The notes under the pieces: model-generated
What the model was told of the DNA's origin: nothing
The model's database searches: none
The model's input: the letters and a program-made list of their open reading frames with translations, nothing else
Position numbers and translations under genes: made by a program
Shown here: positions 6,578 through 24,348 of the stretch, piece by piece
How positions within the stretch are numbered: position 1 is the stretch's first letter
How the letters are laid out: each line of letters opens with the position of its first letter
Assembly (NCBI GenBank): GCA_049366815.1
Contig: JBMNCO010000087.1
Coordinates: 10,317-74,316, forward strand
Direction of reading: 5' to 3'
From: Desulfatiglandales bacterium
GTDB lineage: Bacteria > Desulfobacterota > DSM-4660 > Desulfatiglandales > HGW-15
Length of the DNA stretch: 64,000 nucleotides

Positions 6578-7597
6578 ATGATCATCAAAGACAAGGAATA
6601 TCGGGATAAAGAACAGAAAAGACCGAGGAGTATAAATGTCCTGCACAGGAACGAACAGGATTGTCCGGAGGCAAAGGATAAGGACGGGCCTTCGGGGCAT
6701 GAGGGTGATCGATCCCATGTCACTCTATTTGATTTGAACGACGTGGTGCGGGATCTCGTCGCGCTGATCGGCCCGAAACTGGAGGACAGGGGCAGACTGC
6801 TGGGGGTGAACTACAATCTAAAGACCTTTTTGAGGTCTGGATCCCCGGTCAGGGGGAACCCGGAGGAGATAAGGGCTGTCATCACCGACATGATTGTGGA
6901 GGCCGTTGGGGCCATGCCCGAAGGGGGACACGTCTACCTGACCACGGAAGAAAACGAGGATCATGCCTTTATTTACATGCAGGACAGCGGTGAGGGCATC
7001 GCAGAACAGATCAACGGTCCGATTCTTGACACTTCTCTCTCCCCCGATGGTGAGGGAGGAAGCGGGCTCGGCCGGAGTCGTGCCCATGGGATTGTTCAGA
7101 GGCATCGCGGTGGCATGGAGGTCAAGCGCGGAAAAGGCAAGGGGGCTATCGTCACCATACGACTGCCCGTCGAAAGACAAAAACCGGAGGCGCGGGGCGG
7201 CACGCGAAGAGTAAGAATGAGAAACGCCAGGATCCTGATCATTGAAGCGCATCATATTTTGGGGGAACTTCTCCGCCAGGTTCTTCGGAGTAAGGGATGT
7301 AGGGCGGAAACGGCGGTGAGCCCTCTGGAAGGCCTGAATCGACTCAAGAGGAGGCGTTTCGATCTGTTGATCGCAGGGACGGCGGTGGCGGAAGCGAAGA
7401 TGAAATCCTTTGTCAAAAGGGCCAAGAAGATGGACGGCTCTCTGCCTGTAGTCCTCATTGTATCAGGGGATGGGAGCGAAAAGGCGGTGGAGATCAGAGG
7501 GACGGATGCCGATCTGGTGATCAAAAGGCCTTTGGAGATGGAGCATTTCGCCGGCCGGATATCCGATATCTTGAACAGAAATCAAAGACATCCATGA
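6578..7597 (+). CDS. Histidine-kinase-type ATPase (HATPase_c) fused to a degenerate receiver-like domain; no DHp/His-box
   Basis: G1 box DSGEGI and G2 box GGSGLGRS, then a CheY-like pattern RILIIEAHH / FDLLIAGT / VVLIVSG / IKRP. The acidic pocket and phospho-acceptor Asp are replaced. Confidence 0.7.
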   Translation: MIIKDKEYRDKEQKRPRSINVLHRNEQDCPEAKDKDGPSGHEGDRSHVTLFDLNDVVRDLVALIGPKLEDRGRLLGVNYNLKTFLRSGSPVRGNPEEIRAVITDMIVEAVGAMPEGGHVYLTTEENEDHAFIYMQDSGEGIAEQINGPILDTSLSPDGEGGSGLGRSRAHGIVQRHRGGMEVKRGKGKGAIVTIRLPVERQKPEARGGTRRVRMRNARILIIEAHHILGELLRQVLRSKGCRAETAVSPLEGLNRLKRRRFDLLIAGTAVAEAKMKSFVKRAKKMDGSLPVVLIVSGDGSEKAVEIRGTDADLVIKRPLEMEHFAGRISDILNRNQRHP

Positions 7598-8898
7598 ACC
7601 TGGTCACGGATCAATCCAAAAGGCCGCTTGCCGAGAGGATGAGGCCGCAACGGCTTGAAGACTTCGTAGGGCAAGAACACCTTGTCGGCGAAGGGACACC
7701 CCTTCGAAACGCATTGGAATCAGGGCGTCTTTTCCCCGTCATTTTCTGGGGGCCGCCCGGTTCCGGCAAGACCACCCTCGCCAGACTCATGTCGGGATAC
7801 GCCCGGAACCCCTTTCGTGCCTTTTCCGCCGTTACATCGGGAATAAAGGACCTTCGTCAGGTCATCGCCGAGGCCCGGGATGCGCTCAGGGTCTCAGGCA
7901 ATCCCACCGTCCTCTTTGTGGACGAAATCCACCGGTTCAACAAGGCCCAGCAGGATGCCTTTTTGCCCTATGTTGAACAAGGCCTGATCATCCTTGTCGG
8001 GGCCACGACTCAAAACCCCTCCTTCGAAGTCATTCCGCCCCTGCTTTCCAGGGCACGGGTCATGACCCTTCGTCCCCTGGAGAGGGAGGCCGTCAAGACT
8101 CTCCTGGACCGTGCCCTCAGGGATCGTGGGCGGGGCTTGGGGGACACCGGCATCAGGGTCCTGCCCGCCGCCCTTGACCATTTGATTGACCTGTCCTGCG
8201 GCGATGCCCGGGTCGCCCTAAACAATCTGGAAACAGCGGTATCCTATGTCCTCCAAGGACAAAAGGGAGAGGCCGTCCTGGACCTGGAGGGCGTGGAAAG
8301 GGTGCTTGACCGGAAGGCCCTTCCCTATGACAAGGACGGTGAAGAACACTATAATCTGATCTCAGCCTTCCACAAGAGCCTGCGAGGCGGGGATCCCGAT
8401 GCCTCCCTTTACTGGCTCTACAGGATGCTTGAGGCCGGGGAAGACCCCCTTTTTATCGGTAGAAGGATGATCCGCATGGCCTCCGAAGATATCGGACTGG
8501 CGGATCCCCAGGCCCTTCCGGTCGCCCTGGCCGCTTTTGATGCCTGGCAGAAGGTGGGCCCTCCCGAGGCGGAACTGGCCCTTGCTGAAGCGGCGGTCTA
8601 TCTGGCCTCGGCCCCCAAAAGCAATGCCCTCTATGTGGCTGAAAGGGAGGTCAAAGCGGAAATCCGCAAGTCCGGCCCGCAGCCCGTTCCCCTCCATATC
8701 CGGAATGCCCCGACCCGTTTGATGAAAAAACTGGGTTACGCCCGGGGATACCGCTACCCCCACAACTATCCGGGTGCATGGGTCCAACAGGCATACCTCC
8801 CTAAGGAACTGGAGGCCCGCATCTTTTACCGTCCTACGGGCAGGGGGTTTGAAAAGGAGATAAGAAGGCGGCTCTGGGAGCGCAAGCCCAGGCCCTAG
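7594..8898 (+). CDS. rarA: Replication-associated recombination protein A (AAA+ ATPase)
   Basis: Walker [10 protein letters not shown], Walker [10 protein letters not shown] and an MgsA-type C-terminal domain. ATGA start/stop overlap with the upstream gene. Confidence 0.93.
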
Positions 8899-8979
8899 AG
8901 GGTGGGCTTCCAGCCGTCGATCACGCTCCCGAGAAAATTCGGTTCCTGGTTTCCCGCTGCGTGATAAAACCGTTTCCTC

Positions 8980-9564
8980 CTACCCCCCGTCCAGTTCATC
9001 GAGCAATTTCTGCGAAGTCATGATCCTGAAAAGGGGAAAGAGGGCGTTACGTCGATACATATCCAGGGTGTTTTCATGAATCTCCTGGGTTGCGGCGGTG
9101 GTGCAGTCCTCAAGGATGACCGTCTTGAAGTCGGCGCACAGGGCATCCATGGCCGTAGTGAGGACGCAGAAATTGGTGGTAATCCCGGCCACGGCGCACA
9201 GGGTCACGCCCCTTTCCTTCAGCCACTGCTCAAGATCGGTCCTCCAAAAGGCCGAGAACCTGGGCTTCGGCACCCAGAGATCGGCCTCGGTTCGGATCAG
9301 GTCATCGGAGACCTGGGCACCCACAGTCCCTGTCAGGGAATGGGGCTTCATTTTTCCTTTGAAAATAAAATCATCCCGTTCAAAGGCATCCGTGGGAAAG
9401 ACGACGGGCCAACCCCTTTCCCTGAAGGCCTGCGTCAAGCGGTTGATCGGTGCCAGGAGTCTCTTTGCCAGGGGAGTGATCGGAAAACGATTTGTCTCAT
9501 CCAAATTGTCCTTGACCATATCGATGACCAGGACAGCTGGGATCTCTTTGTTATCATGATCCAT
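8980..9564 (-). CDS. Isochorismatase-family cysteine hydrolase
   Basis: VLVIDMVKD N-terminal strand and nucleophile-Cys motif TTNFCVLTTA. Confidence 0.85.
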   Translation of the reverse strand: MDHDNKEIPAVLVIDMVKDNLDETNRFPITPLAKRLLAPINRLTQAFRERGWPVVFPTDAFERDDFIFKGKMKPHSLTGTVGAQVSDDLIRTEADLWVPKPRFSAFWRTDLEQWLKERGVTLCAVAGITTNFCVLTTAMDALCADFKTVILEDCTTAATQEIHENTLDMYRRNALFPLFRIMTSQKLLDELDGG

Positions 9565-10696
9565 TTCTCATTTCCTTTATGCGTGCAATGATCATTGTGG
9601 CGGCTGTTTCGATCTGATCCGGGGTATTGGTCCTGCCCGTGGTCAATCTCAGGGTCCCCATTCCCACCTCCGGCGGTACCCCCATGGCGGCCAAGACGTG
9701 AGAAAGCCTGACCGTTCTATCGTGACAAGCGGCGCCTGTCGAGGCAAGAAGGGAGGGTAATCCTTCGAGGATTCCGGAACCCTCAATGTTCGGGGCCGAC
9801 ACATTCAGGGTGTTGGGCAGCCTGTGATCGGGATGTCCGTTAAAGACCAGATCCGCCAGGTTCTCCCGGAGCAGGTCCTCTAAACGATCCCGCAGCACCA
9901 TCATATGCGCGATGTCGTCTTCAAGATGTGCCTCCGCCCTGCGGCAGGCGGCACCGAGCCCTACGGCAAGGATGGTGTTTTCAGTGCCCGGCCTCAGGCC
10001 CCCTTCCTGTCCCGCACCGTGCAGAAGGGGGGTCAGAGCCGTGCCTTCCCGGATGAACAGGGCACCGATCCCCTTGGGTCCGTAAAGTTTGTGCCCGGCA
10101 ATGCTCAGGAAGTCAACGCCCAGTTCATCGACATGAACGGACATTTTGCCGACCGCCTGGGCGGCGTCCGTATGAAGGAGGACCCCGAATTCCTTTGCCG
10201 TCCCGGCGATCTCTCTTACAGGCTGCAGGGTGCCGGTCTCGTTGTTGGCCAGCATGATGGAAATCAGTCTGGTCTGAGGACGAATGGCCCTTCGGACATC
10301 CTCGGGATCCACCCGCCCGAAACGGTCCACCGGGAGGATGTCCACTTTTACGCCCTGTTCCAGGAGGTAAAGGGCGGGGTTCAGAACGGCGGGGTGTTCG
10401 ACAGACGAGGTGATCACGTGAAAATCCCCGGGACGTTTGAAGTCGATGACCCCCTTCAAGACGGCATTATTGGATTCGGTCCCTCCCGAGGTGAAAACCA
10501 CCTCCCGGGGGCGGCACCCGATGAGAAGGGCGACCTCTTTTCGTGCCCTTTCAACGGCATCCTTTGCCCGCACACCCAGGTCATAGGGGCTGGAAGGGTT
10601 GCCGAATTCCTGCGACATGAAAGGCATCATGGCCTCAGCCGCAGTCGGATCAAGGGGCGTGGTGGCATTGTGATCCAGATAGATAGGTCCGCTCAT
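9554..10696 (-). CDS. Cysteine desulfurase (class V aminotransferase, NifS/IscS-like)
   Basis: PLP-lysine motif SIAGHKLYGPKG and catalytic Cys loop STGAACHD. Confidence 0.9.
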   Translation of the reverse strand: MSGPIYLDHNATTPLDPTAAEAMMPFMSQEFGNPSSPYDLGVRAKDAVERARKEVALLIGCRPREVVFTSGGTESNNAVLKGVIDFKRPGDFHVITSSVEHPAVLNPALYLLEQGVKVDILPVDRFGRVDPEDVRRAIRPQTRLISIMLANNETGTLQPVREIAGTAKEFGVLLHTDAAQAVGKMSVHVDELGVDFLSIAGHKLYGPKGIGALFIREGTALTPLLHGAGQEGGLRPGTENTILAVGLGAACRRAEAHLEDDIAHMMVLRDRLEDLLRENLADLVFNGHPDHRLPNTLNVSAPNIEGSGILEGLPSLLASTGAACHDRTVRLSHVLAAMGVPPEVGMGTLRLTTGRTNTPDQIETAATMIIARIKEMRNGS

Positions 10697-10908
10697 CCTC
10701 TTCCTCCCTCGGAACGGGTATCAAGTAAGTCAGGCAGTTTAATACGCCGGATCGAGGAAGACAAGGGGGTTCCGGCTGATTCTCCATGAGCAATCCTATT
10801 GGCAATCTCAGAAGGCCACCGGACAGGAGGCCAAGGACCGGCGTGTGCGGAGATGGGCGAATGGCAAGGCTCCGGGACATTTTCGGGCCATGCAACGGGT
10901 TTTGTCAA

Positions 10909-10937
10909 TTGACAATACAGCTTTTTGATGTTAAATT
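10909..10937 (+). promoter_or_regulatory. Sigma70-like promoter candidate for ppsA
   Basis: TTGACA (10909-10914), 17-nt spacer, TAAATT (10932-10937), in an AT-rich divergent intergenic region. Confidence 0.4.
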
Positions 10938-11018
10938 TTTTTCTTTTTCAATCAAGCACTTTTTAGAATTCTTTGTGCGTCCCACCCCGAAAAAATTCTC
11001 AAGAAAGGGAGATGTCCG

Positions 11019-13493
11019 ATGGCATCTGATAAGAGCAAAAATTTTATTCTGTGGTTCAATGAAATCGGTATTCAGGATGTTCCCATGGTTGGAGGAAAGA
11101 ACGCCTCTCTGGGAGAGATGTATCGGAAACTCCACGATAAGGGCATCAATGTCCCTAACGGTTTTGCCATCACTGCCTATGCCTACCGCTATTTTATAAA
11201 ATATGCCGGGATCGAGGAGGAAATCAAAAAGGTTCTGAAAGATCTCGATACGAGCGACATGTACAACCTCATGAGAAAGGGCAGAGAGGTTCGGGATATC
11301 ATCCATCATGCAGAGTTCCCCCCGGATTTGATTCAGGCCATCTATGTGGCCTACGACAAGTTGGCGGAGGAATTCGGACAAAAAGGATTGGATGACCTGG
11401 ACGTCGCCATAAGGTCCTCGGCCACAGCGGAGGACCTTCCAGACGCCTCTTTTGCAGGACAACAGGACACCTACCTGAACATCAGGGGTAAAAGGCGTGT
11501 TCTGGATGCCTGCAGAAAATGCTTTGCCAGTCTCTTCACGAACCGGGCCATATCCTACCGGCATGACAAGGGATACGGGCAGTTTGATGTCTCCCTTTCC
11601 ATTGCCGTACAGAAGATGGTGAGGAGCGATTCCGCCTATTCCGGCGTCATATTTTCTATTGATACCGAGACCGGATTCAAGGATACCGTATTTATCACCG
11701 CAGCCTACGGCCTGGGGGAAAACGTGGTCCAGGGGACCGTGAATCCCGATGAATTCTATGTCTTTAAACCGACCCTCAAGATGGGAAAGCGTGCCATCAT
11801 CAGCCGCAAGGTTGGGGATCGGGATATCAAGATGGTCTACTCCATGGAAGATGAAGCCACGGTAAAGAATGTGGCCACCACGCTCAGTGAAAGGCACCGA
11901 TACGTCCTGGATGACGATGAAATCCTGAAGCTTGCCGAATGGGCCTGCATCATCGAAGACCATTACAGTAAAGAGGCGGGGTATTTCAAGCCCATGGACA
12001 TCGAGTGGGCCAAGGATGGAGACGGAGAGCATGTGGGCACGGGCGCGCTGTTCATCGTTCAGGCCCGACCGGAGACCATCCATTCCCAGAACACATCGAA
12101 TTCCTACGAGAATTACAGACTTCTGGAAAAAGGCGAAATCCTGGCAGTGGGAACGGCAGTGGGGACCAAGGTCGGAAAAGGTATAGCCAAACTCATTGAA
12201 ACATCGGCCGAGATCGAAAAATTCAAGAAGGGCGAGGTGCTCGTCACCAGCATGACGGACCCCGACTGGGAACCCATCATGAAGATCGCCTCGGCGATCG
12301 TCACCAACAAAGGCGGGCGTACCTGTCACGCGGCCATCGTGTCACGGGAATTGGGGATTCCCTGTGTCATAGGGACCGGCAACGCCGATGAGATCATAAA
12401 GACCGGGCAGGAAATCACCGTGAACTGCTGCGAGGGTGAGACAGGTTATGTCTATGACGGTCTCCTGAAATACGAGGTCGAGACCCTGGATCTGGAAGAA
12501 ATCCCAACGACCCGGACCAAGATCATGATGAATGTCGGGACACCCGAGAAGGCCTTTTCACAGGGAATGATTCCCAATGACGGGGTCGGGCTGGCCCGGG
12601 AGGAATTTATTATCAATTCCCATATCGGGATCCATCCCTTGGCCCTGATCGACTATGATGATCTGAGAAAGAAGGCGAAGAACGACCAGAAGATTGCCGG
12701 CGTTGTCTATCGCATTGACGAGGTGACCTCGGTCTATGACAGCAAGACCCAATTCTTTGTGGACAAGCTTTCCGAGGGCGTAGGACGCATCGCGGCAGGC
12801 TTCTATCCCAACGATGTGATCGTTCGACTCTCGGATTTCAAGACCAATGAATATGCCAACCTGACCGGAGGATACCTCTATGAACCGGAGGAGAGCAATC
12901 CCATGATCGGTTGGAGAGGGGCCTCCCGATACTACGATGAGAGATTCAAGGCGGCCTTTGAGCTGGAATGCCGGGCCCTTCGCAAGGCCCGCAGCGAGAT
13001 GGGATTGACCAACATCAAGCTGATGGTCCCCTTCTGCAGGACCCCTGAGGAGGGGAAAAAGGTCATCGCCCTGATGAAGGAGTTCGGGCTCGTGCAGGGC
13101 GAGGAAGATCTTGAGATTTATGTTATGTGTGAAATCCCGAGCAATGTCATCCTTGCCGATCAGTTCGCTGATATCTTTGACGGATTCTCCATCGGTTCCA
13201 ACGACCTGACCCAGCTGGCTCTCGGCCTTGACAGGGATTCCTTTCTGGTGGCGCACATTTATGATGAAAGGAGCGAAGCGGTCAAGAGGCTGGTGGCGGA
13301 TGTGATCAAGGTCGCCAAGTCCAAGGGACGAAAGATTGGAATATGCGGGCAGGCCCCCAGTGATTTCCCTGAATTCGCGGAGTTCCTTGTGGAATGCGGT
13401 ATTGATTCCATAAGCCTCATACCGGATACGGTCATAAAGACCAAGCTTGCTATTGCGGCAAAGGAAAAGGCCCTAGGGATTCCTCCCGTTTGA
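11019..13493 (+). CDS. ppsA: Phosphoenolpyruvate synthase (pyruvate, water dikinase)
   Basis: 824 aa with an ATP-grasp N-domain, phospho-His swivel motif GGRTCHAAIVSRELGIPCV and a PEP-utilising C-terminal barrel. Confidence 0.95.
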   Translation: MASDKSKNFILWFNEIGIQDVPMVGGKNASLGEMYRKLHDKGINVPNGFAITAYAYRYFIKYAGIEEEIKKVLKDLDTSDMYNLMRKGREVRDIIHHAEFPPDLIQAIYVAYDKLAEEFGQKGLDDLDVAIRSSATAEDLPDASFAGQQDTYLNIRGKRRVLDACRKCFASLFTNRAISYRHDKGYGQFDVSLSIAVQKMVRSDSAYSGVIFSIDTETGFKDTVFITAAYGLGENVVQGTVNPDEFYVFKPTLKMGKRAIISRKVGDRDIKMVYSMEDEATVKNVATTLSERHRYVLDDDEILKLAEWACIIEDHYSKEAGYFKPMDIEWAKDGDGEHVGTGALFIVQARPETIHSQNTSNSYENYRLLEKGEILAVGTAVGTKVGKGIAKLIETSAEIEKFKKGEVLVTSMTDPDWEPIMKIASAIVTNKGGRTCHAAIVSRELGIPCVIGTGNADEIIKTGQEITVNCCEGETGYVYDGLLKYEVETLDLEEIPTTRTKIMMNVGTPEKAFSQGMIPNDGVGLAREEFIINSHIGIHPLALIDYDDLRKKAKNDQKIAGVVYRIDEVTSVYDSKTQFFVDKLSEGVGRIAAGFYPNDVIVRLSDFKTNEYANLTGGYLYEPEESNPMIGWRGASRYYDERFKAAFELECRALRKARSEMGLTNIKLMVPFCRTPEEGKKVIALMKEFGLVQGEEDLEIYVMCEIPSNVILADQFADIFDGFSIGSNDLTQLALGLDRDSFLVAHIYDERSEAVKRLVADVIKVAKSKGRKIGICGQAPSDFPEFAEFLVECGIDSISLIPDTVIKTKLAIAAKEKALGIPPV

Positions 13494-13628
13494 ATGACGA
13501 CATAGTTTTTCCGGCCTGAGTCGATGCCTACAGCCTTCCCCGGCCGGAAGATTGTTAGCTGTCTGAAAAGCACAGCACTATGGAATACCGGTTGAAGAAT
13601 GAATCAAGATGTGGAGAAACTCGGATAG

Positions 13629-14618
13629 ATGAGCGCGATAGGAATACTCGGAACTGGTTCCTATGTCCCCCCTAAAGTCCTCAGCAACTTTGATCTTCAG
13701 GAGATGGGGCTTGATACCACGGATGAATGGATCACCCAACGGACGGGGGTCCGGGAAAGGAGGATGGCCGATCCGGATGTAACGACATCGGACCTGGCCC
13801 TGGAGGCCTCTCTGAGGGCCCTTGATATGGCGGGTTTGACTGCCAAGGATCTGGATCTGGTCATTGTTGGAACGATCACGCCCGACACCTGCTGTCCGTC
13901 GGCCGCAAACTGGCTCCAGGCAAAGCTGGAGGCCACCCGGGCCGCTACCTTTGATGTAACGGCCGCCTGTTCCGGTTTTATCTTTGCGATCAACGTCGCA
14001 ACCCAGTATCTCCTCACAGGGGCCTGCAAACATGTGCTGGTCGTGGGGTCCGAGGTGATGACCCGCACCCTTGACTGGAAGGACAGAAAGACCTGTATCC
14101 TGTGGGGTGACGGGGCCGGCGCCGCTGTCCTGACAGGAGGCGGGCAGGGCCACGAGATCCTGTCCTCCCACATACACACGGACGGATTCAACGGTCGAGA
14201 CCTGCTTTTACCGGGTGGTGGGTCGAAGACCACGCCCATCAGCCATGAAAGCGTGGACAAGGGTCTTCACACGCTCAATATGATCGAGGCCAATGCCAGC
14301 TTCAGGGTGGCGGTGCGTCACTTCGTTGAATCCATCAGAGAAGCGGCCGAGTTTAATCATGTCGCTATTGAGGACATCGACTGGTTTATCCCGCACCAGG
14401 CCAATTTTCGCATGTTCATCTCCATGGCCAAGAATCTCAATGTCCCCATAGAACGCTTTTATGTCACGCTCCACAAATACGGAAATATCTCCTCTGCATC
14501 ATGTGCCATTGCGCTCGACGAGGCCGTTCGGGACGGAAGCATCCACGAGGGGGACGTGATCTGCATGCCCGTTTTCGGCGGGGGATTGTCATGGGGTAGC
14601 GCCCTGATCAGGTGGTAG
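13629..14618 (+). CDS. fabH: Beta-ketoacyl-ACP synthase III
   Basis: Catalytic Cys in AACSGF, FIPHQANFRM and YGNISSAS motifs; 329 aa. Confidence 0.93.
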   Translation: MSAIGILGTGSYVPPKVLSNFDLQEMGLDTTDEWITQRTGVRERRMADPDVTTSDLALEASLRALDMAGLTAKDLDLVIVGTITPDTCCPSAANWLQAKLEATRAATFDVTAACSGFIFAINVATQYLLTGACKHVLVVGSEVMTRTLDWKDRKTCILWGDGAGAAVLTGGGQGHEILSSHIHTDGFNGRDLLLPGGGSKTTPISHESVDKGLHTLNMIEANASFRVAVRHFVESIREAAEFNHVAIEDIDWFIPHQANFRMFISMAKNLNVPIERFYVTLHKYGNISSASCAIALDEAVRDGSIHEGDVICMPVFGGGLSWGSALIRW

Positions 14619-14765
14619 AAGGGCTTGAGAAGAGAAAAAAGCGCCCCGTCATGACTGGAACCAAAGCGGTTTCATGCTCGGGGTCGTGCGCCCCTCGGTC
14701 TTTTCCCACAAGTTTGCTTGCCCGTCAGGCCTCCTGTTTTTGACCATAGTCTTTTAATCTTTTGT

Positions 14766-14898
14766 CGTAACACTTTAGCCCTTTGAAAAATTCGAAAGGA
14801 AATCATGCACCCTTTCTTACGTTCCGAAGCTCCCGCTGATCACTTCAGAAAGGGAGCATGATTTTCACACAGTTATTGGAAAGGGCTGAATTCATACC
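14766..14898 (+). mobile_element. MITE-like element, family 1, copy A (133 bp)
   Basis: Flanked by identical TTTTGT at 14760-14765 and 14899-14904. Imperfect terminal inverted repeats: CGTAACACTTTAGCCCTTT versus the reverse complement of the right end, GGTATGAATTCAGCCCTTT. Internal stem of about 20 bp. No ORF. Confidence 0.8.
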
Positions 14899-14921
14899 TT
14901 TTGTCTAATAGAGGAGGATGA

Positions 14922-15374
14922 ATGATGGCTGATAAATCATCGGCCCCCCTTATTAGAACAATGACACACAAAGATCTCGAACGCATTTTAGAGATCGACA
15001 AAAAGGTGCTCGGAAAATCACGACCTGAATACTGGGAATTAAAACTGATGATGGTCGAGCGGCGATCACCCGTGGTATCCCTGGTAGCCGAACTGGATGG
15101 AAAGATCGTCGGGTTTATCATCGGCGATGCGAGCGGTTGGAAATACGGGGCGCCCGACAATATTGGCTGGATCGATACGATCGGCGTGGATCCCGATTAT
15201 CAACGAAGGGGTATCGCCAAGATGCTCATGACGGAGATGGTTAACGACCTGAAAAAGTCAGGGGTCGATACCATATACACCTTTGTCAACTGGCGCGATT
15301 GGGACCTGCTGAAGTTTTTTGACGCCAACGGATTCCAGAGGGGTTCCATGATGAACCTGGAACTGAAGTCCTGA
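14922..15374 (+). CDS. GNAT-family N-acetyltransferase
   Basis: Acetyl-CoA binding motif QRRGIAKMLM. GGAGG RBS upstream. Confidence 0.85.
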   Translation: MMADKSSAPLIRTMTHKDLERILEIDKKVLGKSRPEYWELKLMMVERRSPVVSLVAELDGKIVGFIIGDASGWKYGAPDNIGWIDTIGVDPDYQRRGIAKMLMTEMVNDLKKSGVDTIYTFVNWRDWDLLKFFDANGFQRGSMMNLELKS

Positions 15375-15444
15375 GGGTCTTTTCCCTGGAATCGATGTCT
15401 GACCCGGCCCCTACCCTTTGTCCCATCCCTGAACCCCGGGGCGG

Positions 15445-17238
15445 TCAGGGGCCGGAACGGGTGTCGGACAGGGCGGGTCTTTCCAGCAGCCTTCTCGCCC
15501 TCTCAACGAACCGAGATTTGTCCAGGTAGGTCTCGGTTCTCAACGCCTCTTCTTCACCCCCGTATCGGTTGATAAAGATCAGGGTCGGAACACCTCTTAT
15601 CCCGTAGCGGCCCAGAATTTCATCCTGAGAAGCATGGTGCGTGGTCAGATCAAGACGCATCATGATTACCTTTCGGCTCAGGTCCAAGACCTCCGGAGAG
15701 GTGAAAACCGTTCTGTCCATGGCCCGGCATGGCCCACACCAATCCGCATAAAAGTCAAGGATCACAGGAAAATTTTCCTCCTTCGCCCTCCTGAGAATAG
15801 ATTCATCGTAAGGGACCCAGTGGACCCCTTCTTTTTTGGCGGTACCGAAGGTCATGTAGCTCATAGCCGCAACGAGCAGCAGCAGCCCGAATCCCTGCCT
15901 GAAAAGGCTGAATCTCCGCATGGCCCCGCCCGTCCGGTCGACCCAGCCAAGATGGATGCCGGCGAGAACCCCGAGACCTCCCAGCAGATGGGCCCTATCC
16001 AAATAGGATGAGAGCAGTGGACTGCATATATAGGCCGCCATTCCGACCAAGACCCAACCCATGACTTTCCTGATCCAGACCATCCACTCCCCTGACATGG
16101 GTAATCGGGTGGAGAGTCCTGAGAAGAAGGCAAGCACGGAAAGGGGAAGTCCGAGTCCGATACTGAGGACAAAAAAGTACAGAAAACCCAGAACCGGTTT
16201 CCCTGTATGCCCCACGTAGGTGAGGAGTCCCAGCAAAAAGGGCCCCAGGCAAGGAGCGGCCAGGATGCCCAGTGTAAGTCCCATGAAAAAGGTGCCGAAG
16301 TGACCACCGTAGTTGCGGGACGCCAGTCTGCTCAGCCCCGTGGGCAGGCGTATTTCCCAGAAACCCATGGAGCTGAATCCCAAGAAGAGCAGCACCGCCC
16401 CCATAGCCGTCAAGAGATAGGGGTTCTGGAGGGCAGATCCCAGCAGTTTCCCGGAGAGAGCGGCGGTCAAACCAAGCAGGGAATTGGTGAGTGCCAGCCC
16501 GACCATATAGAGGGAGCAGTGGATGAGCATGCGACGCCGTGAGTCCTGACTCTTTCCACTGAAATAGGAAACCGTTATGGGGATGAGAGGATAGATACAG
16601 GGAGTCAGGTTCAGGGCCAACCCTCCAAAGAAGATGGCTGCAAGGGACAATAAGAGCCCGGTATCAGGCCTCAGACCGAAGGGTCCGCCCTTTTTTTCGT
16701 TTTCCGTCGTCTTGGTGAGAAAAACCGATTGGTTCAATGCCTTGGCGATGACGCCTTCGGGACAGACCGGAAATGAAAGGGGGATAGAGATTTGCTCGGG
16801 CGGCAGGCACGCCGAGGGAGAACATGCCTGATAGGAGAGACGCCCTTCAAGGGATTGCCCCCCCGGTTGTACACGCTCTCCAACGATGAGTGCAGCCCCG
16901 ATCAGGATCTGTCCTGAAAACACTTCGAGTGGTTCAGAGGAGTAAGCAAAGGTCTCTATCCTGGGCGCCGGGAAGAGGAAATCTTGGACTGCAAGTTCGT
17001 CATGGTGGGAGAAGGAAAGCACCGTGGGGACAATATCCCTGCTCTTTTTTTCGGGGGTGTGGATTGCCCAGGGTCTGGATACCTCCAGGCGCAGGAGAAT
17101 GGGATACCGCCCCCCGGGTGCGTAACAGTCTTGAGAATGAATGACTTCCATCCTTACGGTGGAGGCACGGGAAAATGAGACGCTGGGGAAAAGGATGAAG
17201 ATGAGAAGCGCGGCGCAGAGGGATAGTATTTTTTCCAT
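15445..17238 (-). CDS. DsbD-type thiol:disulfide interchange protein (periplasmic N-domain, CcdA-like membrane core, thioredoxin domain)
   Basis: Membrane-core Cys motifs LTPCIYPLIP and AAPCLGPF, plus a C-terminal thioredoxin WCGPC. ATG at 17238 (MEKILSLCAALLIF signal) is preferred over the TTG-extended track ORF. Confidence 0.85.
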   Translation of the reverse strand: MEKILSLCAALLIFILFPSVSFSRASTVRMEVIHSQDCYAPGGRYPILLRLEVSRPWAIHTPEKKSRDIVPTVLSFSHHDELAVQDFLFPAPRIETFAYSSEPLEVFSGQILIGAALIVGERVQPGGQSLEGRLSYQACSPSACLPPEQISIPLSFPVCPEGVIAKALNQSVFLTKTTENEKKGGPFGLRPDTGLLLSLAAIFFGGLALNLTPCIYPLIPITVSYFSGKSQDSRRRMLIHCSLYMVGLALTNSLLGLTAALSGKLLGSALQNPYLLTAMGAVLLFLGFSSMGFWEIRLPTGLSRLASRNYGGHFGTFFMGLTLGILAAPCLGPFLLGLLTYVGHTGKPVLGFLYFFVLSIGLGLPLSVLAFFSGLSTRLPMSGEWMVWIRKVMGWVLVGMAAYICSPLLSSYLDRAHLLGGLGVLAGIHLGWVDRTGGAMRRFSLFRQGFGLLLLVAAMSYMTFGTAKKEGVHWVPYDESILRRAKEENFPVILDFYADWCGPCRAMDRTVFTSPEVLDLSRKVIMMRLDLTTHHASQDEILGRYGIRGVPTLIFINRYGGEEEALRTETYLDKSRFVERARRLLERPALSDTRSGP

Positions 17239-17309
17239 AGGCAAGATAGTTGACGGTGCGAGGCGAGCTCCGAGGTCCGGCAAAGGAAGGTCCGCTCTCT
17301 TCACCTGAC

Positions 17310-17516
17310 TCAAAGGGGTTTTCGATAGGGCGAGGGATCCTTACTGCCTTCGAGGACCTTGTGCATGCGATCTCTTTCAGTAACGGCCTTGCGGAGTTCA
17401 TCCTCCAAGGCGGCCCTTTGGTCGGGATGTGCCCTTTTCAGGAGATTTTCGAGCCTTTCCACCTCCTTTTGGAGACGGTAAAGATCCTGAGCAACCATGC
17501 GAATAGGTGCGGTCAT
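17310..17516 (-). CDS. Small coiled-coil hypothetical protein (68 aa)
   Basis: Heptad-like sequence LYRLQKEVERLENLLKRA. Same strand as the DsbD-type gene, just upstream of it. No family recognised. Confidence 0.45.
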   Translation of the reverse strand: MTAPIRMVAQDLYRLQKEVERLENLLKRAHPDQRAALEDELRKAVTERDRMHKVLEGSKDPSPYRKPL

Positions 17517-17525
17517 ACCGGCTGT

Positions 17526-18170
17526 TCACCTTTCCTGTGCCCAACCGGAAATGAGCATTCCCGATTGATGAACGGCAGCATTTCCTTCTGATATCTGTTT
17601 TTCACATCCCTTGCCAACCTTTTCATCTGAAAGGACCAGCCTTCGTACATCCCCGGGTCTGAATTTCAAGTGGCTGAAGATCTGTTTCTCGACCTCACCG
17701 GCCAATCGAAAATTTTGCCTGATCCGGGACCGGACAAGGCTCTTGTTCTTCCCGTATCGGATAAGAAGATCCCTGAGGCGTTCCTCAAGACTCACGATGG
17801 TGTCGTGATTGACCCTCTTGTCGGCGTAATAAACAATCTGGCTCTCCGAAATGCCGTCCCCGGGATTATAGGCCTTCAGGAGGACGTGCTGCCCCACAAT
17901 CTCCGCGATTTCATCAAATTGGTTCTCGATACATAGTCTCCGTCCCATAGCCGCGTGATCTTCCCCCGTCTTGAGACAGGTCGTTTTGGCGATGTCATGC
18001 ATAAGGGCACCGGCTCTTACAACATCAAGGGAAATCGATTCACCGGCCTCCTTCAACCCTTTGCCGATGATCGCGGCGACCTTTTCGACCATGACGGAGT
18101 GGGCCTTGATGTTATCCAACATTTCATACTTGTCCATGAGTGCATGACAGTCTTCGATGGAGGGAACCAT
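17526..18170 (-). CDS. HD/HDIG-domain metal-dependent phosphohydrolase
   Basis: HD motif ALMHDIAK. Start placed at MVPSIEDCH (GAGGA RBS 7 nt upstream), not at the longer track ORF reaching 18374. Confidence 0.75.
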   Translation of the reverse strand: MVPSIEDCHALMDKYEMLDNIKAHSVMVEKVAAIIGKGLKEAGESISLDVVRAGALMHDIAKTTCLKTGEDHAAMGRRLCIENQFDEIAEIVGQHVLLKAYNPGDGISESQIVYYADKRVNHDTIVSLEERLRDLLIRYGKNKSLVRSRIRQNFRLAGEVEKQIFSHLKFRPGDVRRLVLSDEKVGKGCEKQISEGNAAVHQSGMLISGWAQER

Positions 18171-18650
18171 ATCCTGATCCTCTTGTCTGACCCGCTGACA
18201 AGGCCGATCCTTTTGAACCGACAAACCCATCAGCCCTATGACGTCACAATAATGTGCACTTTTCCTCTCAAAGTCAATGAACAAAGGGCCCTGTGGCCAA
18301 GAAGGGCATCCCGTCTTATCAGGCCAAACCGAGGTGAACACGGTGTTCCCCAAAATACCAGTCAAGAAATTCAAGGTTTTGCCGATAATAACATTTGAAC
18401 ACCTCAGGAAATAATTTCAGGCAGTTAATGCAGGTTCATTCGTCCTAATCACAATAGAGAGGGATGTTTTTGGGGGCCTGCAGCAATGCAGCAAAACGGA
18501 ACAGACGTGCCCGGGGTCAGGATCGACGAATGCGGCGCAAAGATTTCGCTTTCCCAATGTGACGACCGGTTGTCCCTCCGCTTGCTTTTACAACACATCT
18601 TGGGAAAGAACTTGCCGGATACTTGGTATAAAATCCTTTGAGGTCCATTC

Positions 18651-19046
18651 ATGATGGCATTTACGGCGTTCATTATTTTGGAGGACCAAAGAAAAGAAGA
18701 CTGGGCCTCTTTCGAATCTCCCCAATTTTTCTGTGCGACCTTTAAATGGCCAAAGGACCCCCATGGGGAAGGCGGCCATGAATTAGGCATTCTCGACCAC
18801 TCCGCACAGGGATTGGCCCTTTTCCTTCCAAAGGAAAAACGTCGCCTTTTCGAGGACCTCGAACCCGGGGACAGGATTTCGGAAATTACGCTCTTTGCGG
18901 AACATGCACTGACGGTGGTGAATGGAGCCCTGACCAGTAAAAAAATTGTTGAAGATGGGATTTATCAAGGGAATTTCGTTATCGAACTGGAACTTGACAC
19001 GGGACTTGATCGCAGGGATGCGGGTCCCGGTTTTTTCAGTTCCTGA
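18651..19046 (+). CDS. PilZ-like domain protein with a degenerate N-terminal RxxxR motif
   Basis: DxSxxG motif present (ILDHSAQGLALF). The expected RxxxR position reads QRKEDW. Extended -10 (TGGTATAAA, 18624-18632) upstream. Confidence 0.5.
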   Translation: MMAFTAFIILEDQRKEDWASFESPQFFCATFKWPKDPHGEGGHELGILDHSAQGLALFLPKEKRRLFEDLEPGDRISEITLFAEHALTVVNGALTSKKIVEDGIYQGNFVIELELDTGLDRRDAGPGFFSS

Positions 19047-19154: not shown

Positions 19155-21404
19155 ATGTCAAAACCTGCTTTCAACGGTTCATCAAGATATCTCAAACCTA
19201 TCCCTCTCAAAAAGTCAAGCCTCAAGGCCACGGTCAAGGATCAGTCCGGTGCAGGAAAGACCCGGATTGGGGAGATCTTATGTAAGGAAGGACACATTAC
19301 CAGCCTGCAGCTTCAAGAGGCGCTGAACATTCAGAACAGGAGCGGAGGAAGGCTCGGGACCATACTCCTGAGGTGCGGTTATATAGAAGAAGAGACCATT
19401 GTTAACGTCCTGAGCCGAATCCACAACTATCCAGCCGCCCTCATCAAAAAGATGTCCCCGGACCCGGAGGCCATCAAGGCCGTTCCATATGAGACGGCGA
19501 AACAATATTTGGCCTTCCCCCTGGCTGTCAAGGAAAAGACCCTCGAGATCACCATGGCGGAGCCCACGGACACCGCTGCCGTCGAAGAGCTACAGACGGC
19601 CGTCCAGAAGGGATTGAGTGTCTTTGTTTCAAGTGAAAAGGATATTATTGAGGCCTACAAGAAATATTACAAGATCAGTGACGAAGAATACGACAGCTTC
19701 TTTGCCAAAACCGATGATGAAAAGATAGAAGAAGACCTTCCGGTCACCCCGATCGATGACATCGGCTCCTTGGTCTCCGAGGCCGCGGGTGACATGGAAT
19801 TGGATACCGGTTCCGAAGAACTGATCAAGGACGAATTCTCGGCAGGTGACGCGCCGATCATCAAACTCGTAAACGGCATCATGATCAAGGCGGTCAACGA
19901 CGAGGTGAGCGATATCCATATCGAACCCTTCGAGAAAGCATTGCAGGTCAGGTACCGTTTGGACGGTGCCCTATACAAATCCATGAATCTGCCCCTCACC
20001 ATCAAGAATGCCTTGATCTCGCGGATAAAAATTCTGGCCGGTCTGGACATATCAGAAAGGCGTGTCCCTCAGGACGGCCGGATAAAGCTGCGTCTGGGAA
20101 AGGCACGGGCGATTGACTTTCGTGTTTCAACCCTCCCCACTCTCTTTGGGGAGGGCGTTGTTATGCGTATCCTTGATCCAGGTGCCCTGAATGTCGACCT
20201 CACGAAACTGGGTTTTGAGGCGGAGACCTTCGAAGGGATCAGACGCTGTATTCACAGGCCCTATGGGCTGCTCCTCGTGACAGGGCCTACCGGCAGCGGC
20301 AAGACCACAACCCTTTACAGCATCCTCAATGCTCTCAATAAAGAAGAAACAAAGATCCTCACGGCCGAAGACCCGGTTGAGTTCAACTTCAGGGGAATCA
20401 ATCAGGTTAATGTGAAGAAGGAAGTCGGCATGACCTTTCCCGCCGCCCTCAGGGCCTTCCTCAGACAGGACCCCGATATCATTATGGTCGGTGAGATCCG
20501 GGACATGGAGACCGCAGAGATCGCCATCAAGGCAGCCATGACCGGTCACCTGGTTTTCAGCACCCTCCATACCAATGACTGTCCGTCCACGATCGGTCGT
20601 CTGGTGGATATCGGAATACCGTCTTATATGCTGGCCTCTTCCGTGACCATGGTCCTTTCCCAGCGTCTGGCCAGAAAGCTCTGCCCAAGATGTAAGAGCG
20701 TGCTCAACGGCTTTGACCCCAGGGAGCTGGAGGCCATGGGGTTTCATGAAAGTGAGATTCCGGACTTGACCTTTTACGGCCCCAGAGGATGCCCGGCCTG
20801 CAATGCCGGGTACAAGGGACGGGTAGGACTCTATGAGCTGATGGAGGTGACCGATGATGTTTCCAAGGCCATCAATGCGGGAGTTACAGAGGATCAGCTC
20901 AGGAAGACAGCCATCCAGGAGGGCATGGTAACCTTAAGGGAAGCGGGGCTTGAAAAGATCCGGCAAGGAACGACGTCTGTAGAAGAGATCCTCAAGCGAA
21001 CGGTGATCACCAGGGAGGCCATGCCGGCCTATCTCGTCAACCCAGACATCGAACACTACGAAGACAAGGACGTGATTATCAGGGAAGGCAACAAGGACAA
21101 GGACTTTTTCAAGCTCGTCCAGGGATCGCTCATGGTTGTAAAACAGGGCAAGAAGATCGCGGATATTGTGCAGCCCGGCGAATATTTCGGAGAGATGGCC
21201 GCCATCTCCGGAGAATCCCGATCGGCCAGTATCATTTCAAAGGGACGTTCCGTTATCAAACGTTTTCCAGGCGATAAGCTTGACGAGATTATTCAAAAAT
21301 ATCCGGAAGTGGCCAAACACCTCTTTGGAGAGATCGTGAATCGCCTGGACAGCTCCAACCGGATTAATGTCAGGCTGGTCGGCGAGCTCATGCAAAAGAA
21401 ATAA
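19155..21404 (+). CDS. GspE/PilB/MshE-family secretion ATPase with an N-terminal MshEN-type domain and a C-terminal cNMP-binding domain
   Basis: Walker A GPTGSGKTT, Walker B DPDIIMVGEIRD, His box TGHLVFSTLHTN, tetracysteine CPRC...CPAC. Tandem RLGxxLLxxGxL repeats at aa 37-89. CAP-type motif GEYFGEMAAISGESRSASI in the last 128 aa. Confidence 0.9.
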   Translation: MSKPAFNGSSRYLKPIPLKKSSLKATVKDQSGAGKTRIGEILCKEGHITSLQLQEALNIQNRSGGRLGTILLRCGYIEEETIVNVLSRIHNYPAALIKKMSPDPEAIKAVPYETAKQYLAFPLAVKEKTLEITMAEPTDTAAVEELQTAVQKGLSVFVSSEKDIIEAYKKYYKISDEEYDSFFAKTDDEKIEEDLPVTPIDDIGSLVSEAAGDMELDTGSEELIKDEFSAGDAPIIKLVNGIMIKAVNDEVSDIHIEPFEKALQVRYRLDGALYKSMNLPLTIKNALISRIKILAGLDISERRVPQDGRIKLRLGKARAIDFRVSTLPTLFGEGVVMRILDPGALNVDLTKLGFEAETFEGIRRCIHRPYGLLLVTGPTGSGKTTTLYSILNALNKEETKILTAEDPVEFNFRGINQVNVKKEVGMTFPAALRAFLRQDPDIIMVGEIRDMETAEIAIKAAMTGHLVFSTLHTNDCPSTIGRLVDIGIPSYMLASSVTMVLSQRLARKLCPRCKSVLNGFDPRELEAMGFHESEIPDLTFYGPRGCPACNAGYKGRVGLYELMEVTDDVSKAINAGVTEDQLRKTAIQEGMVTLREAGLEKIRQGTTSVEEILKRTVITREAMPAYLVNPDIEHYEDKDVIIREGNKDKDFFKLVQGSLMVVKQGKKIADIVQPGEYFGEMAAISGESRSASIISKGRSVIKRFPGDKLDEIIQKYPEVAKHLFGEIVNRLDSSNRINVRLVGELMQKK

Positions 21405-22919: not shown

Positions 22920-23388
22920 AGCCGAACCCCAAACAAGAATCTGGATACAGGCCAAGTTTGAGCAATCGTCGTGGTTCGATTTCCCCGGATGGCCTGTTCC
23001 GGTCGCCCTCACCTGCAGGGGCCCTATTGAGGGTCCTCCCGCCCCTTTCCAGCGAATTTCACACACCCTTTGAGCAGTGACCGTCCTGCTCTCAAAATTT
23101 AGGTCATTGTCTGCGCGGAAAATTTCGCGGTGCCCTCCTGTGCCGAGCCTGGTCAGGGTGTTGACCACTGAGTCCCCCAGACTCTCCTCCGTCCAAAAAT
23201 CAGCCTGCTGTATTTGCAGGCGGTACGCATTTCAATGTGTCCCATGGTGCAGTTGAAGGGTTGTGCGGTCCGGAAACTGGTTTTACGAATATTTTTGGCA
23301 TATCGGCGCCACCAATGATAATATCTGCGCGTTAGTGACCACAAACCGTCACGGTTCAGGGGATTTTTTAAAAATAGGCCTATTCACC

Positions 23389-24348
23389 ATGATCCAAGCG
23401 CATAACAAGACGGTCTGCCCTCAATGTGGGGAGCCGGTCAAAAAGACCTGGAAACACTGCCCAGCCTGTGAGACGCCCCTGACCCTGCTCCAGTGCCCAG
23501 TCTGTATGGCTCCTGTCAAGGAGCACTGGAAGAGATGTCCGGAATGTGAGGCCTCCCTTGTGTGCAAGACCTGTGGGGGCCGCATCCCGCCGGGATCTAC
23601 GAAATGTCCGGTGTGTGCCCCGCAGGAAACCGAAACCTGCCTGCAAAGAAAAGAAGTGACGGAGCCTGCCACGCAAATGACATTTCTTTATGTGCCGCCC
23701 GGAAGATTCATGATGGGCGATACCTTTGGAGATGGATTCGAAAACGAGCTTCCTGTGCATCCGGTTCAAATGGATGCCTTCTTTATGGGAAAATACCCGG
23801 TCACCCAGGCCCAATGGGAGGTCTTGATGGGAACGAATCCCTCAAAGTTCAAATCCCGTCTCCATCCAGTGGAGCAGGTCAGCTGGGCGGACACCCACCG
23901 CTTCATCGAGGAACTGACCAAGGCCGACAATGGCACCTTCCGCTTTTCACTCCCTACAGAGGCCCAGTGGGAATATGCGGCCCGGAGCGGAGGCAGAGAG
24001 GAACGTTACGCCGGAGGTGGGGATGTTGATGCCGTGGCCTGGTATGAGGATAACGCCGGCGAATCCACCCGGCCTGTGGGCCTGAAGGCCCCGAACGGCC
24101 TTGGCCTCCACGATATGAGCGGCAATGTTTGGGAATGGTGCCAGGACAATTTTCAGTCGGATGCCTATAGGAGACACCACCCTCAAAACCCCGTCTTCAC
24201 AGGGAAAGGCCCGGACCGGGTTATCCGCGGCGGCAGTTGGAATCTCGACGCCTGGAGTGTCCGGTGCGCAAGACGATTCAGTTTCAGGGAGGATTTCTTG
24301 GCACCCGGATTAGGGTTCAGGCTGGTTATGGCGGTCCAAGGGCCATGA
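23389..24348 (+). CDS. Formylglycine-generating-enzyme (SUMF1) family protein with three N-terminal zinc-ribbon repeats
   Basis: Three CxxC-N10-12-CxxC units (CPQCGEPVKKTWKHCPAC, CPVCMAPVKEHWKRCPEC, CKTCGGRIPPGSTKCPVC), then FGE motifs GNVWEWCQD and RGGSW. Start moved to ATG 23389. Confidence 0.85.
   Translation: MIQAHNKTVCPQCGEPVKKTWKHCPACETPLTLLQCPVCMAPVKEHWKRCPECEASLVCKTCGGRIPPGSTKCPVCAPQETETCLQRKEVTEPATQMTFLYVPPGRFMMGDTFGDGFENELPVHPVQMDAFFMGKYPVTQAQWEVLMGTNPSKFKSRLHPVEQVSWADTHRFIEELTKADNGTFRFSLPTEAQWEYAARSGGREERYAGGGDVDAVAWYEDNAGESTRPVGLKAPNGLGLHDMSGNVWEWCQDNFQSDAYRRHHPQNPVFTGKGPDRVIRGGSWNLDAWSVRCARRFSFREDFLAPGLGFRLVMAVQGP

Follow-up and report, generated by a model that had tools for sequence, protein, structure and literature searches.

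A PilB-type ATPase with a predicted cyclic-nucleotide-binding domain at its C-terminus in a clade of sulfate-reducing Desulfobacterota

The stretch of DNA analysed here (64,000 nucleotides of contig JBMNCO010000087.1 from a Desulfatiglandales bacterium, referred to below as the window) carries on its forward strand a gene for a 749-residue ATPase of the secretion superfamily, with a predicted module for c-di-GMP (cyclic dimeric GMP) at the N-terminus and a predicted cyclic-nucleotide-binding (CNB) domain of the CAP/CRP type at the C-terminus. An initial annotation, made by a model from the letters alone, had drawn attention to this combination; translation bore out the open reading frame (ORF) and the protein that it quoted, its motifs (the tandem MshEN-type repeats, Walker A and B, His box, CPRC/CPAC) were all recovered on re-mapping, the repeats at the coordinates given, and the three hidden Markov model (HMM) families that it named (T2SSE, MshEN and cNMP_binding) all score above curated cut-offs. 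The gene and its parts are as follows.

19155..21404, + strand: pilB-CNB gene, a single uninterrupted ORF with a 749-aa product (TIGR02538, 733.7 bits)
19263..19421, + strand: predicted MshE-type c-di-GMP-binding module, residues 37-89 (NF053729)
nt 19263-19334, + strand: MshEN motif 1, RIGEILCKEGHITSLQLQEALNIQ, 24 residues, 37-60
nt 19350-19421, + strand: MshEN motif 2, RLGTILLRCGYIEEETIVNVLSRI, 24 residues, 66-89
19425..19682, + strand: rest of the MshEN/GSPII N1 domain, residues 91-176 (Pfam PF05157)
19842..20993, + strand: T2SSE secretion-superfamily ATPase core, N2 domain and C-terminal domain (CTD), residues 230-613 (Pfam PF00437)
nt 20283-20309, + strand: Walker A, GPTGSGKTT, residues 377-385 (motif mapping)
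nt 20469-20504, + strand: Walker B, DPDIIMVGEIRD, residues 439-450 (motif mapping)
nt 20541-20576, + strand: His box, TGHLVFSTLHTN, residues 463-474 (motif mapping)
nt 20682-20693 and 20790-20801, + strand: Cys pairs of the zinc site, CPRC (residues 510-513) and CPAC (546-549)
21006..21050, + strand: junction from the last ATPase helix to the CNB beta-barrel, ITREAMPAYLVNPDI, residues 618-632 (family alignment)
21051..21302, + strand: predicted CAP/CRP-type cyclic-nucleotide-binding beta-barrel, residues 633-716 (Pfam PF00027)
nt 21186-21230, + strand: phosphate-binding cassette, FGEMAAISGESRSAS, residues 678-692 (family alignment)
21303..21401, + strand: C-terminal helix, presumed B/C 'lid' of the CNB domain, residues 717-749 (structure model, HCN/SthK alignments)

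The catalytic motifs of secretion ATPases and the tetracysteine zinc site are all present in the protein, and Pfam T2SSE (PF00437) matches at E 8.6e-137. The PilB equivalog model TIGR02538 is passed over residues 38-617 with 733.7 bits (cut-off 675.65), whereas the GspE equivalog TIGR02533 is missed (562.6 bits against 630.25), as are NF007755 (440 against 617) and the NCBIfam models for TfpB, ComGA and PilT; Pfam finds no GSPE_N1E domain. GspE and MshE were both entertained as identities of the protein and ruled out on HMM cut-offs and genomic context. Alignments of the N-terminus to solved structures lead to Vibrio cholerae MshE (5HTL, E 1e-16), Myxococcus xanthus PilB and Thermus thermophilus PilF. 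In a neighbour-joining tree of the ATPase core the fused Desulfobacterota sequences form one clade, for which reason the product of 19155-21404 is best read as the PilB orthologue of its Desulfobacterota clade with a domain added C-terminally; the nearest relatives without the fusion are the PilBs of Nitrospinota, Gemmatimonadota, Myxococcota and Geobacter.

With the PilBs of Myxococcota and Geobacter the protein shares 44-47% sequence identity, and with those of M. xanthus, Chloracidobacterium thermophilum (PMC6957770) and Geobacter metallireducens (PDB 5TSG/6OLJ) an MshEN N1 domain built of two 24-residue motifs in tandem, an N2 domain and a CTD bearing Walker A and B, the His box and a tetracysteine zinc site. 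It differs from these PilBs, which end at the equivalent of residues ~616-620, in the extra CNB domain of ~130 residues at its C-terminus, and further in a leader of 36 residues at the N-terminus, a second MshEN motif that ends in isoleucine and the position of the gene outside a pil cluster.

The C-terminal addition is recognized by Pfam cNMP_binding (PF00027) at 59.7 bits, against a gathering threshold of 27.5, over positions 2-89 of the 89 in the profile. Its matches in the PDB include the cNMP domains of PKG, PKA-R, HCN, SthK and CRP, the cassette aligning with those of PKG and PKA; PKG gives a whole-chain E value of 6e-28 and the best single CNB domain 5e-11, and the alignments to the HCN and SthK domains span residues ~624-736. 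On this evidence the CAP-type domain proposed in the initial annotation stands: neither a score below the HMM threshold nor a missing cassette, the two outcomes it had named as contrary, was found, the cassette being intact by sequence.

Conservation within the family is concentrated where a ligand pocket would need it. In an alignment of 142 sequences (the 141 members counted being 64-100% identical), F678, G679, E680 and R689 of the cassette are invariant in 141, 132 of the 141 have Ser or Thr at position 690 and 133 keep A691; conservation extends to G645 and G657, two glycines of the barrel, and neighbouring sites vary. Residues P624, Y626 and P630 of the junction are essentially invariant and the whole 15-residue segment is almost so. 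A cassette of the form FGE...R[ST]A that is fixed across 141 sequences argues for selection on ligand binding, and because of it the binding of a cyclic nucleoside monophosphate (cNMP) is probably retained; a preference for cyclic AMP (cAMP) or cyclic GMP (cGMP) is undecidable from Ser690 or from the rest of the sequence.

The same cassette (FGE-x9-R[ST]A) and C-terminal lid helix occur in the CNB effectors of the CAP/CRP type (PKA-R, PKG, HCN/SthK/MloK1, CRP/Vfr), and, as in these, the domain is a predicted allosteric sensor appended to an output domain. Other effectors built in this way include Mt-Pat, an acetyltransferase regulated by cAMP, and Bd1971, a cNMP-EAL protein. Unlike the known fusions, the output here is a hexameric ATPase of the secretion superfamily, the CNB domain is C-terminal, the junction measures only ~15 residues and there is no N-terminal helical bundle; a CNB domain with a secretion-ATPase output was not encountered among the solved structures matched or in the literature searched. 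With so short a junction and no separate helical bundle before the barrel, the predicted CNB domain should pack closely on the ATPase CTD.

The best stretch of an otherwise poor AlphaFold2 (AF2) model of the C-terminal region is one helix (model residues 122-153, protein residues 717-748), with means of the predicted local distance difference test (pLDDT) of 55, 66, 81 and 72 in successive 10-residue blocks. That the terminal helix is the best-modelled element would also suit a CNB domain acting as a ligand-independent structural or oligomerization module, comparable to the CNB-homology domains of KCNH channels, in which the long helix would staple neighbouring subunits of the hexamer together or recruit a partner. 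The absence of a cyclase gene from the window is in keeping with such a role, and a divergent relative described below (P0152), whose cassette is degenerate (FFCE...HTA), shows that a canonical pocket is no requirement for the module to be retained. This explanation is nevertheless considered unlikely, given that G679 and E680, which would contact the ribose, and R689, which would contact the phosphate, are invariant, and [ST]690 and A691 nearly so, while the flanks vary, as they would around a working pocket.

A further alternative is a pocket that works with some other ligand, and published CNB domains offer several, such as c-di-GMP in Xanthomonas Clp, cCMP or cUMP in Pycsar effectors and a nucleoside in trypanosome PKA; the protein would then not integrate cAMP/cGMP with c-di-GMP. 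The CNB domain of a PycTIR effector is among the PDB matches (8jsj, E 1e-8 to 4e-10), binding of ligands other than cAMP is documented for trypanosome PKA and Clp, and residue 690, whether Ser or Thr, gives no means of telling ligands apart. Against this, the top matches are canonical cAMP/cGMP binders (PKG, PKA-R, HCN, SthK and CRP) with a cassette of the standard form (FGE...R[ST]A), a Pycsar role would be unlikely for a conserved housekeeping gene, and in none of the loci examined is the gene flanked by defence genes, so that another ligand is given a small share of belief and cAMP or cGMP remain the preferred candidates.

The fused architecture is widely represented among sulfate-reducing Desulfobacterota. 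Among the matches listed, MshEN, T2SSE and cNMP_binding occur together in all of the 120 clusters formed at 90% identity (72-100% identical to the query), and wherever a name is given it reads 'type IV(-A) pilus assembly (ATPase/protein) PilB'; a cluster member of equal length, NCBI MFZ7111216.1, is entered as 'MAG: type IV-A pilus assembly ATPase PilB [Desulfatiglandales bacterium]' (MAG, metagenome-assembled genome). When GTDB was scanned with a single genome for each species, the fusion was found in 22 species genomes, isolates included, and all the matches that run full-length through the CNB domain belong to Desulfobacterota. The carriers include Desulfobacter latus AcRS2, D. postgatei, Desulfotignum, Desulfurivibrio sp. 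C05AmB, Desulfobulbus propionicus and Desulfocapsa as well as MAGs of Desulfobacteraceae and Desulfobulbaceae. The next-best relatives (Nitrospinota, Gemmatimonadota, Acidobacteriota, Myxococcota and Geobacter; 41-53% identical) end at residues ~616-620 and, judged from where these alignments stop, are ordinary PilBs without the added domain.

Two further searches addressed the junction and the CNB domain themselves. With residues 560-749 as the query against a representative library of 1.84 billion proteins clustered at 50%, about 16 of the best 150 representatives cross the ATPase-CNB junction, those of full or near-full length being P0123, P0130, P0131, P0152 and P0161. The CNB domain used alone retrieved 136 proteins at E<=1e-30, all of them contig-end fragments of <=235 aa, many named PilB and one from Candidatus Electrothrix; in this search, which gives no family total, the CNB subtype is found only on PilB fragments. 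The fusion is thus common in one clade of Desulfobacterota (Desulfobacterales, Desulfobulbales and Desulfatiglandales) and rare elsewhere, and the fused form is the standard PilB of that clade of sulfate reducers. The description of the architecture as unusual holds when every studied PilB is the yardstick and fails as a statement on database frequency. The initial annotation had also allowed that the architecture might prove both common and already characterized; common it is, and a paper describing it was not found.

The metagenomic origin of the contig, and nothing further, could be cited for an assembly or gene-calling artefact joining pilB to a separate cNMP-binding gene. The ORF is uninterrupted, and the same architecture and junction recur in more than 140 independent sequences, some from isolates (e.g., Desulfobacter latus AcRS2 and Desulfurivibrio sp. 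C05AmB) and complete chromosomes; this conservation refutes the artefact, the probability of which is regarded as negligible.

At the other end of the protein, NCBIfam NF053729 ('c-di-GMP_motif') scores 61.3 bits (cut-off 38) over residues 37-88 and Pfam MshEN (PF05157) 53.5 bits (cut-off 23.1). The two motifs are separated by the five residues NRSGG (61-65). Within the family, R/K37, I38, G39, L42, G46, L53, L57 and Q60 of motif 1 are conserved; motif 2 keeps R66, L67, G68, L71, G75, I82 and L86. The module corresponds residue for residue to that of V. cholerae MshE (5HTL, PMC5013675), with the same length of 53 residues, two motifs and a five-residue spacer, and differs from it in that Gln61 is replaced by isoleucine and that C43 and H47 depart from the hydrophobic consensus; MshE also lacks the added CNB domain, and the msh operon has no counterpart around the gene studied here. 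The tandem 24-residue repeats with a five-residue spacer that had been compared with MshE are therefore confirmed by NF053729 and by the 5HTL alignment, save that motif 2 does not end in glutamine. Binding of c-di-GMP to MshEN domains has precedents in MshE (PMC5013675) and PilB (PMC6957770).

The CNB module is not restricted to PilB. The protein P0131 (L083:10001-11938) is a GspE-type ATPase, with GSPE_N1E and T2SSE domains and no MshEN motifs, in which the CTD is followed by a closely similar junction (KEALPAYLLNPD) and a CNB domain with an intact FGE...RSA cassette; compared with the PilB fusion, the junction and the CNB domain are thus the same and GspE N1E takes the place of the MshEN motifs. 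Its gene lies between gspD and gspF in a complete gspCDEFGHIJKLM cluster (L083, flanks 7009-17849), and a PilZ gene is found ~7 kb downstream of it. In the neighbour-joining tree P0131 branches with other ATPases, away from the PilB-CNB clade, so that the module would have been either acquired twice or transferred between ATPase types. The presence of a related junction and CNB domain on a GspE within a complete gsp cluster suggests that the module may act generically on the ATPase CTD.

In two further loci (L087:7695-10004 and L012:7462-9834) a paralogue of GAF-MshEN-T2SSE composition (769-790 aa) is encoded directly upstream of the MshEN-T2SSE-CNB gene, the two genes overlapping by 4 bp in L087; the two secretion ATPases form a tandem pair, and both may carry a sensor for cyclic nucleotides. 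In the divergent MshEN-T2SSE-CNB protein P0152 (L085:10001-12004) the cassette is degenerate, reading FFCE...VHTAS instead of FGE...R[ST]A, and the N-terminal pair of c-di-GMP motifs is missing; the sensor may have decayed in this protein. Another locus (L086:19670-21994) has genes of cNMP_binding-PAS and cNMP_binding-FHA composition at 7-9 kb downstream of its fused pilB, and genes for CheD and for a Zn-ribbon-HDOD-HD protein are located 2-3 kb upstream of the fused gene in two loci of Desulfobacterota genomes (L086:6662-8204 and L082:6523-8056).

In Pfam scans of ~50 ORFs of the window, only housekeeping functions were recognized (including DnaE, PPDK, FabH, DsbD, an HD protein, a queuosine-precursor transporter, HU, a Tol-Pal cluster, MoeA and an RND efflux system), with no pil, gsp or msh gene besides pilB and no GGDEF or EAL gene. 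When the ORFs that flank PilB in 58 non-fused loci, full pil clusters of Myxococcota and Geobacter among them, were compared with the window by BLAST, only pilB itself proved to be pilus-related. The downstream gene that had been described as an unrelated transporter is confirmed as such, HMMs assigning it to the Vut_1/queuosine-precursor transporters.

In relatives, too, the fused gene is surrounded by housekeeping genes. All-versus-all clustering of the ORFs from 24 fused loci gave housekeeping functions as the only conserved neighbours (ABC-F ATPase, PPDK, NifS/NifU, ThyX and FTHFS), with no functional linkage, and tblastn searches of 80 genome loci with the neighbour genes of the window gave no synteny past the closest relatives. 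A PPDK/PEP-synthase-like gene (window 11019-13493, + strand) precedes the fused pilB at a distance of up to ~10 kb, as it does in at least seven related loci (L002, L005, L007, L008, L014, L018 and L081); this proximity amounts to a loose conserved synteny without an obvious functional link.

No association with PilC, PilM or pilin genes was seen in the window or beside the fused gene in most relatives. In a sister lineage a PilM_2/FtsA-like gene comes directly after the fused gene (P0130, 774 aa; L084:10001-13490), with a weak T2SSC-like gene 6.6 kb downstream. According to published comparative work, the genes for the type IVa pilus lie apart in Desulfobacterales and in orders related to it (PMC6060248). 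Since the relatives are likewise isolated, the pilus genes of these orders dispersed and P0130 adjacent to PilM_2, the isolated position of the gene is, as far as these loci allow it to be read, normal for the clade and does not of itself make the partner machinery mysterious. The initial annotation had presented the ATPase as an orphan whose partner machinery is unknown; the first half is correct in that no pil, gsp or msh gene flanks it within 64 kb, and the second over-reads the isolation of a protein that passes the PilB equivalog in organisms with dispersed pilus genes.

The same isolation can be taken to mean that the ATPase serves another machine (an MSHA-like pilus, the type II secretion system (T2SS) or a competence pilus) or that it mainly signals, as does M. 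xanthus PilB in the regulation of exopolysaccharide. The lack of partner genes within 64 kb, the related CNB module on the bona fide GspE P0131 and the tandem paralogous ATPases of some relatives all lend themselves to this explanation, and there is precedent for PilB acting in signalling (PMC5544727). It is considered improbable, however, as the protein passes TIGR02538 and fails the GspE, TfpB, ComGA and PilT models, clusters in the tree with the PilBs of Myxococcota and Geobacter and not with P0131, and has a sister lineage that adjoins pilM in orders where type IVa pilus genes are dispersed (PMC6060248).

Immediately upstream of pilB-CNB the window contains the following features.

18651..19046, + strand: upstream ORF, 131 aa, no family assigned (neighbour only)
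19015-19037, + strand: terminator-like hairpin GGGATGCGGGTCCC (hairpin 19015-19028) followed by GGTTTTTT, overlapping the 3' end of the upstream ORF

The upstream ORF had been called 'PilZ-like', a label for which no confirmation was obtained. It has no Pfam match at E<=10, PilZ (PF07238) included, and no PDB profile match at E<=10; the homologue search gave three close matches only, all 'hypothetical' or unnamed, and tblastn of the 80 loci showed it to be absent from the more distant fused ones. The ORF that precedes pilB in an 86%-identical relative (L081) is 50% identical to it and contains RRKEER and NYSMRG, which resemble the PilZ motifs RxxxR and (D/N)xSxxG, respectively; the copy in the window reads QRKEDW, with RxxxR lost, and DHSAQG, in which (D/N)xSxxG is present. 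An AF2 model built from three sequences is unusable (pLDDT 52.9). PilZ identity was set aside in view of this partial resemblance and the lack of HMM or PDB support, and the label is kept as an unverified lead. The terminator-like hairpin at the 3' end of this ORF suggests that it and pilB may be separate transcription units.

Elsewhere in the window, one long gene accounts for several ORFs on the opposite strand.

2837-6349, - strand: DNA polymerase III alpha, 1170 aa (PHP, DNA_pol3_alpha, finger, HHH_6 and OB domains)

The ORFs without Pfam match at 2786-4714, 4775-5596 and 5681-6337 (+ strand) are shadows of this gene. An HD/HDIG protein encoded at 17526-18374 (- strand) matches only the C-terminal part of the model for the DVU_1551-family NTP transferase, its position is kept in the close relative L081 and a 68-aa coiled-coil-like ORF (17310-17516) comes after it. 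Downstream of pilB, the gene at 23263-24348 (+ strand) combines an FGE-sulfatase (SUMF1-like) domain with an N-terminal double zinc ribbon, and the segment 35678-39032 (+ strand) contains two adjacent MoeA paralogues, the second of which (37095-39032) is fused to a PBP_like domain.

Taken together, these data favour, with some confidence, the interpretation that the fused protein is the extension motor PilB of the type IVa pilus of its clade, in which the MshEN module senses c-di-GMP and the CNB domain binds a 3',5'-cyclic mononucleotide and acts on the CTD. In the mechanism proposed, the hexameric motor would drive pilin polymerization through PilC and PilM partners encoded elsewhere in the genome; the N-terminal module would respond to c-di-GMP as in MshE and in the PilBs of M. 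xanthus and Chloracidobacterium (PMC5013675, PMC6957770), and the C-terminal domain would bind cAMP or cGMP. Ligand-induced movement of the cassette and of the lid helix may then be relayed to the ATPase CTD by the short, rigid junction, a direct route suggested by the fact that the barrel follows the last CTD helix almost at once, with no helical bundle between them. The resulting effect on the CTD, whatever the direction of the presumed regulation, could tune ATP turnover, the conformation of the hexameric ring or the binding of partners, and pilus extension would in this way be gated post-translationally by two second messengers. Evidence of cNMP signalling in relatives, namely the other cNMP_binding genes less than 10 kb away in L086, is counted in favour of this proposal.

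Several observations weigh against it. No pilC, pilT, pilM-Q, pilin or nucleotide cyclase gene lies in the window, and the assumption is that the partners and the source of the signal are both encoded in other parts of the genome. An AF2 model built for residues 596-749 (18 family sequences) reaches a mean pLDDT of only 44.4, which makes it unusable for the geometry of the pocket or for its docking on the CTD. Some relatives encode a GAF-MshEN-T2SSE paralogue upstream, for which reason the fused protein may not be the sole extension motor in every genome. In the MshEN module, the terminal glutamine of motif 2 is replaced by I89 (family counts at this position: Ile 82, Leu 23, Val 13, Thr 10 and Gln 7), and C43, H47 and I89 fall outside even the relaxed pattern that has been published (PMC5013675); owing to the missing glutamine and these three off-pattern positions the affinity for c-di-GMP may be reduced. 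In MshE, Gln61 is hydrogen-bonded to the 3'-OH of the ribose and to a phosphate oxygen, and mutation of charged or polar residues, Gln32 included, changes the affinity less than fivefold, as compared with losses of more than tenfold in hydrophobic mutants (PMC5013675). As polar changes such as that of Gln32 are tolerated to this extent, binding of c-di-GMP by the module is still plausible but not assured.

The control of PilB known to date involves c-di-GMP acting on MshEN, accessory proteins (FimX, PilZ) and transcription through cAMP-Vfr. In Pseudomonas aeruginosa, where Pil-Chp, CyaB, cAMP and Vfr are involved, the control of type IV pili by cAMP is transcriptional and exerted via a separate CRP-like factor, and a 2024 review on PilB regulation presents cAMP only as a transcriptional input via Vfr, with no CNB domain on PilB (PMC11656802). 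The system proposed here resembles Pil-Chp/Vfr in linking a cyclic mononucleotide to pilus production and differs from it in that the motor itself contains the sensor domain, an arrangement that would imply direct post-translational control. Literature searches found no paper on a fusion of PilB or T2SSE with a cNMP-binding domain (PilB combined with cNMP terms gave unrelated work) and none naming both 'T2SSE' and 'cNMP_binding'. The motor and sensor domains are each known, and their combination is widespread in databases and uncharacterized in the literature searched.

The broader proposition is that this clade of Desulfobacterota gates its pilus motor by a cNMP and c-di-GMP on one polypeptide, as a two-messenger coincidence detector, and that the CNB plug-in, which also occurs on a T2SS ATPase, defines an undescribed class of cNMP-gated secretion-superfamily ATPases; belief in it is evenly balanced. 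If the CNB domain does bind cAMP or cGMP and tunes the ATPase, this would constitute a new regulatory input to the motors of type IV pili and of the T2SS. It would also provide a simple biochemical handle on surface behaviour in sulfate reducers of environmental importance and in the relatives of cable bacteria, as well as a natural ligand-switchable secretion ATPase for mechanistic work.

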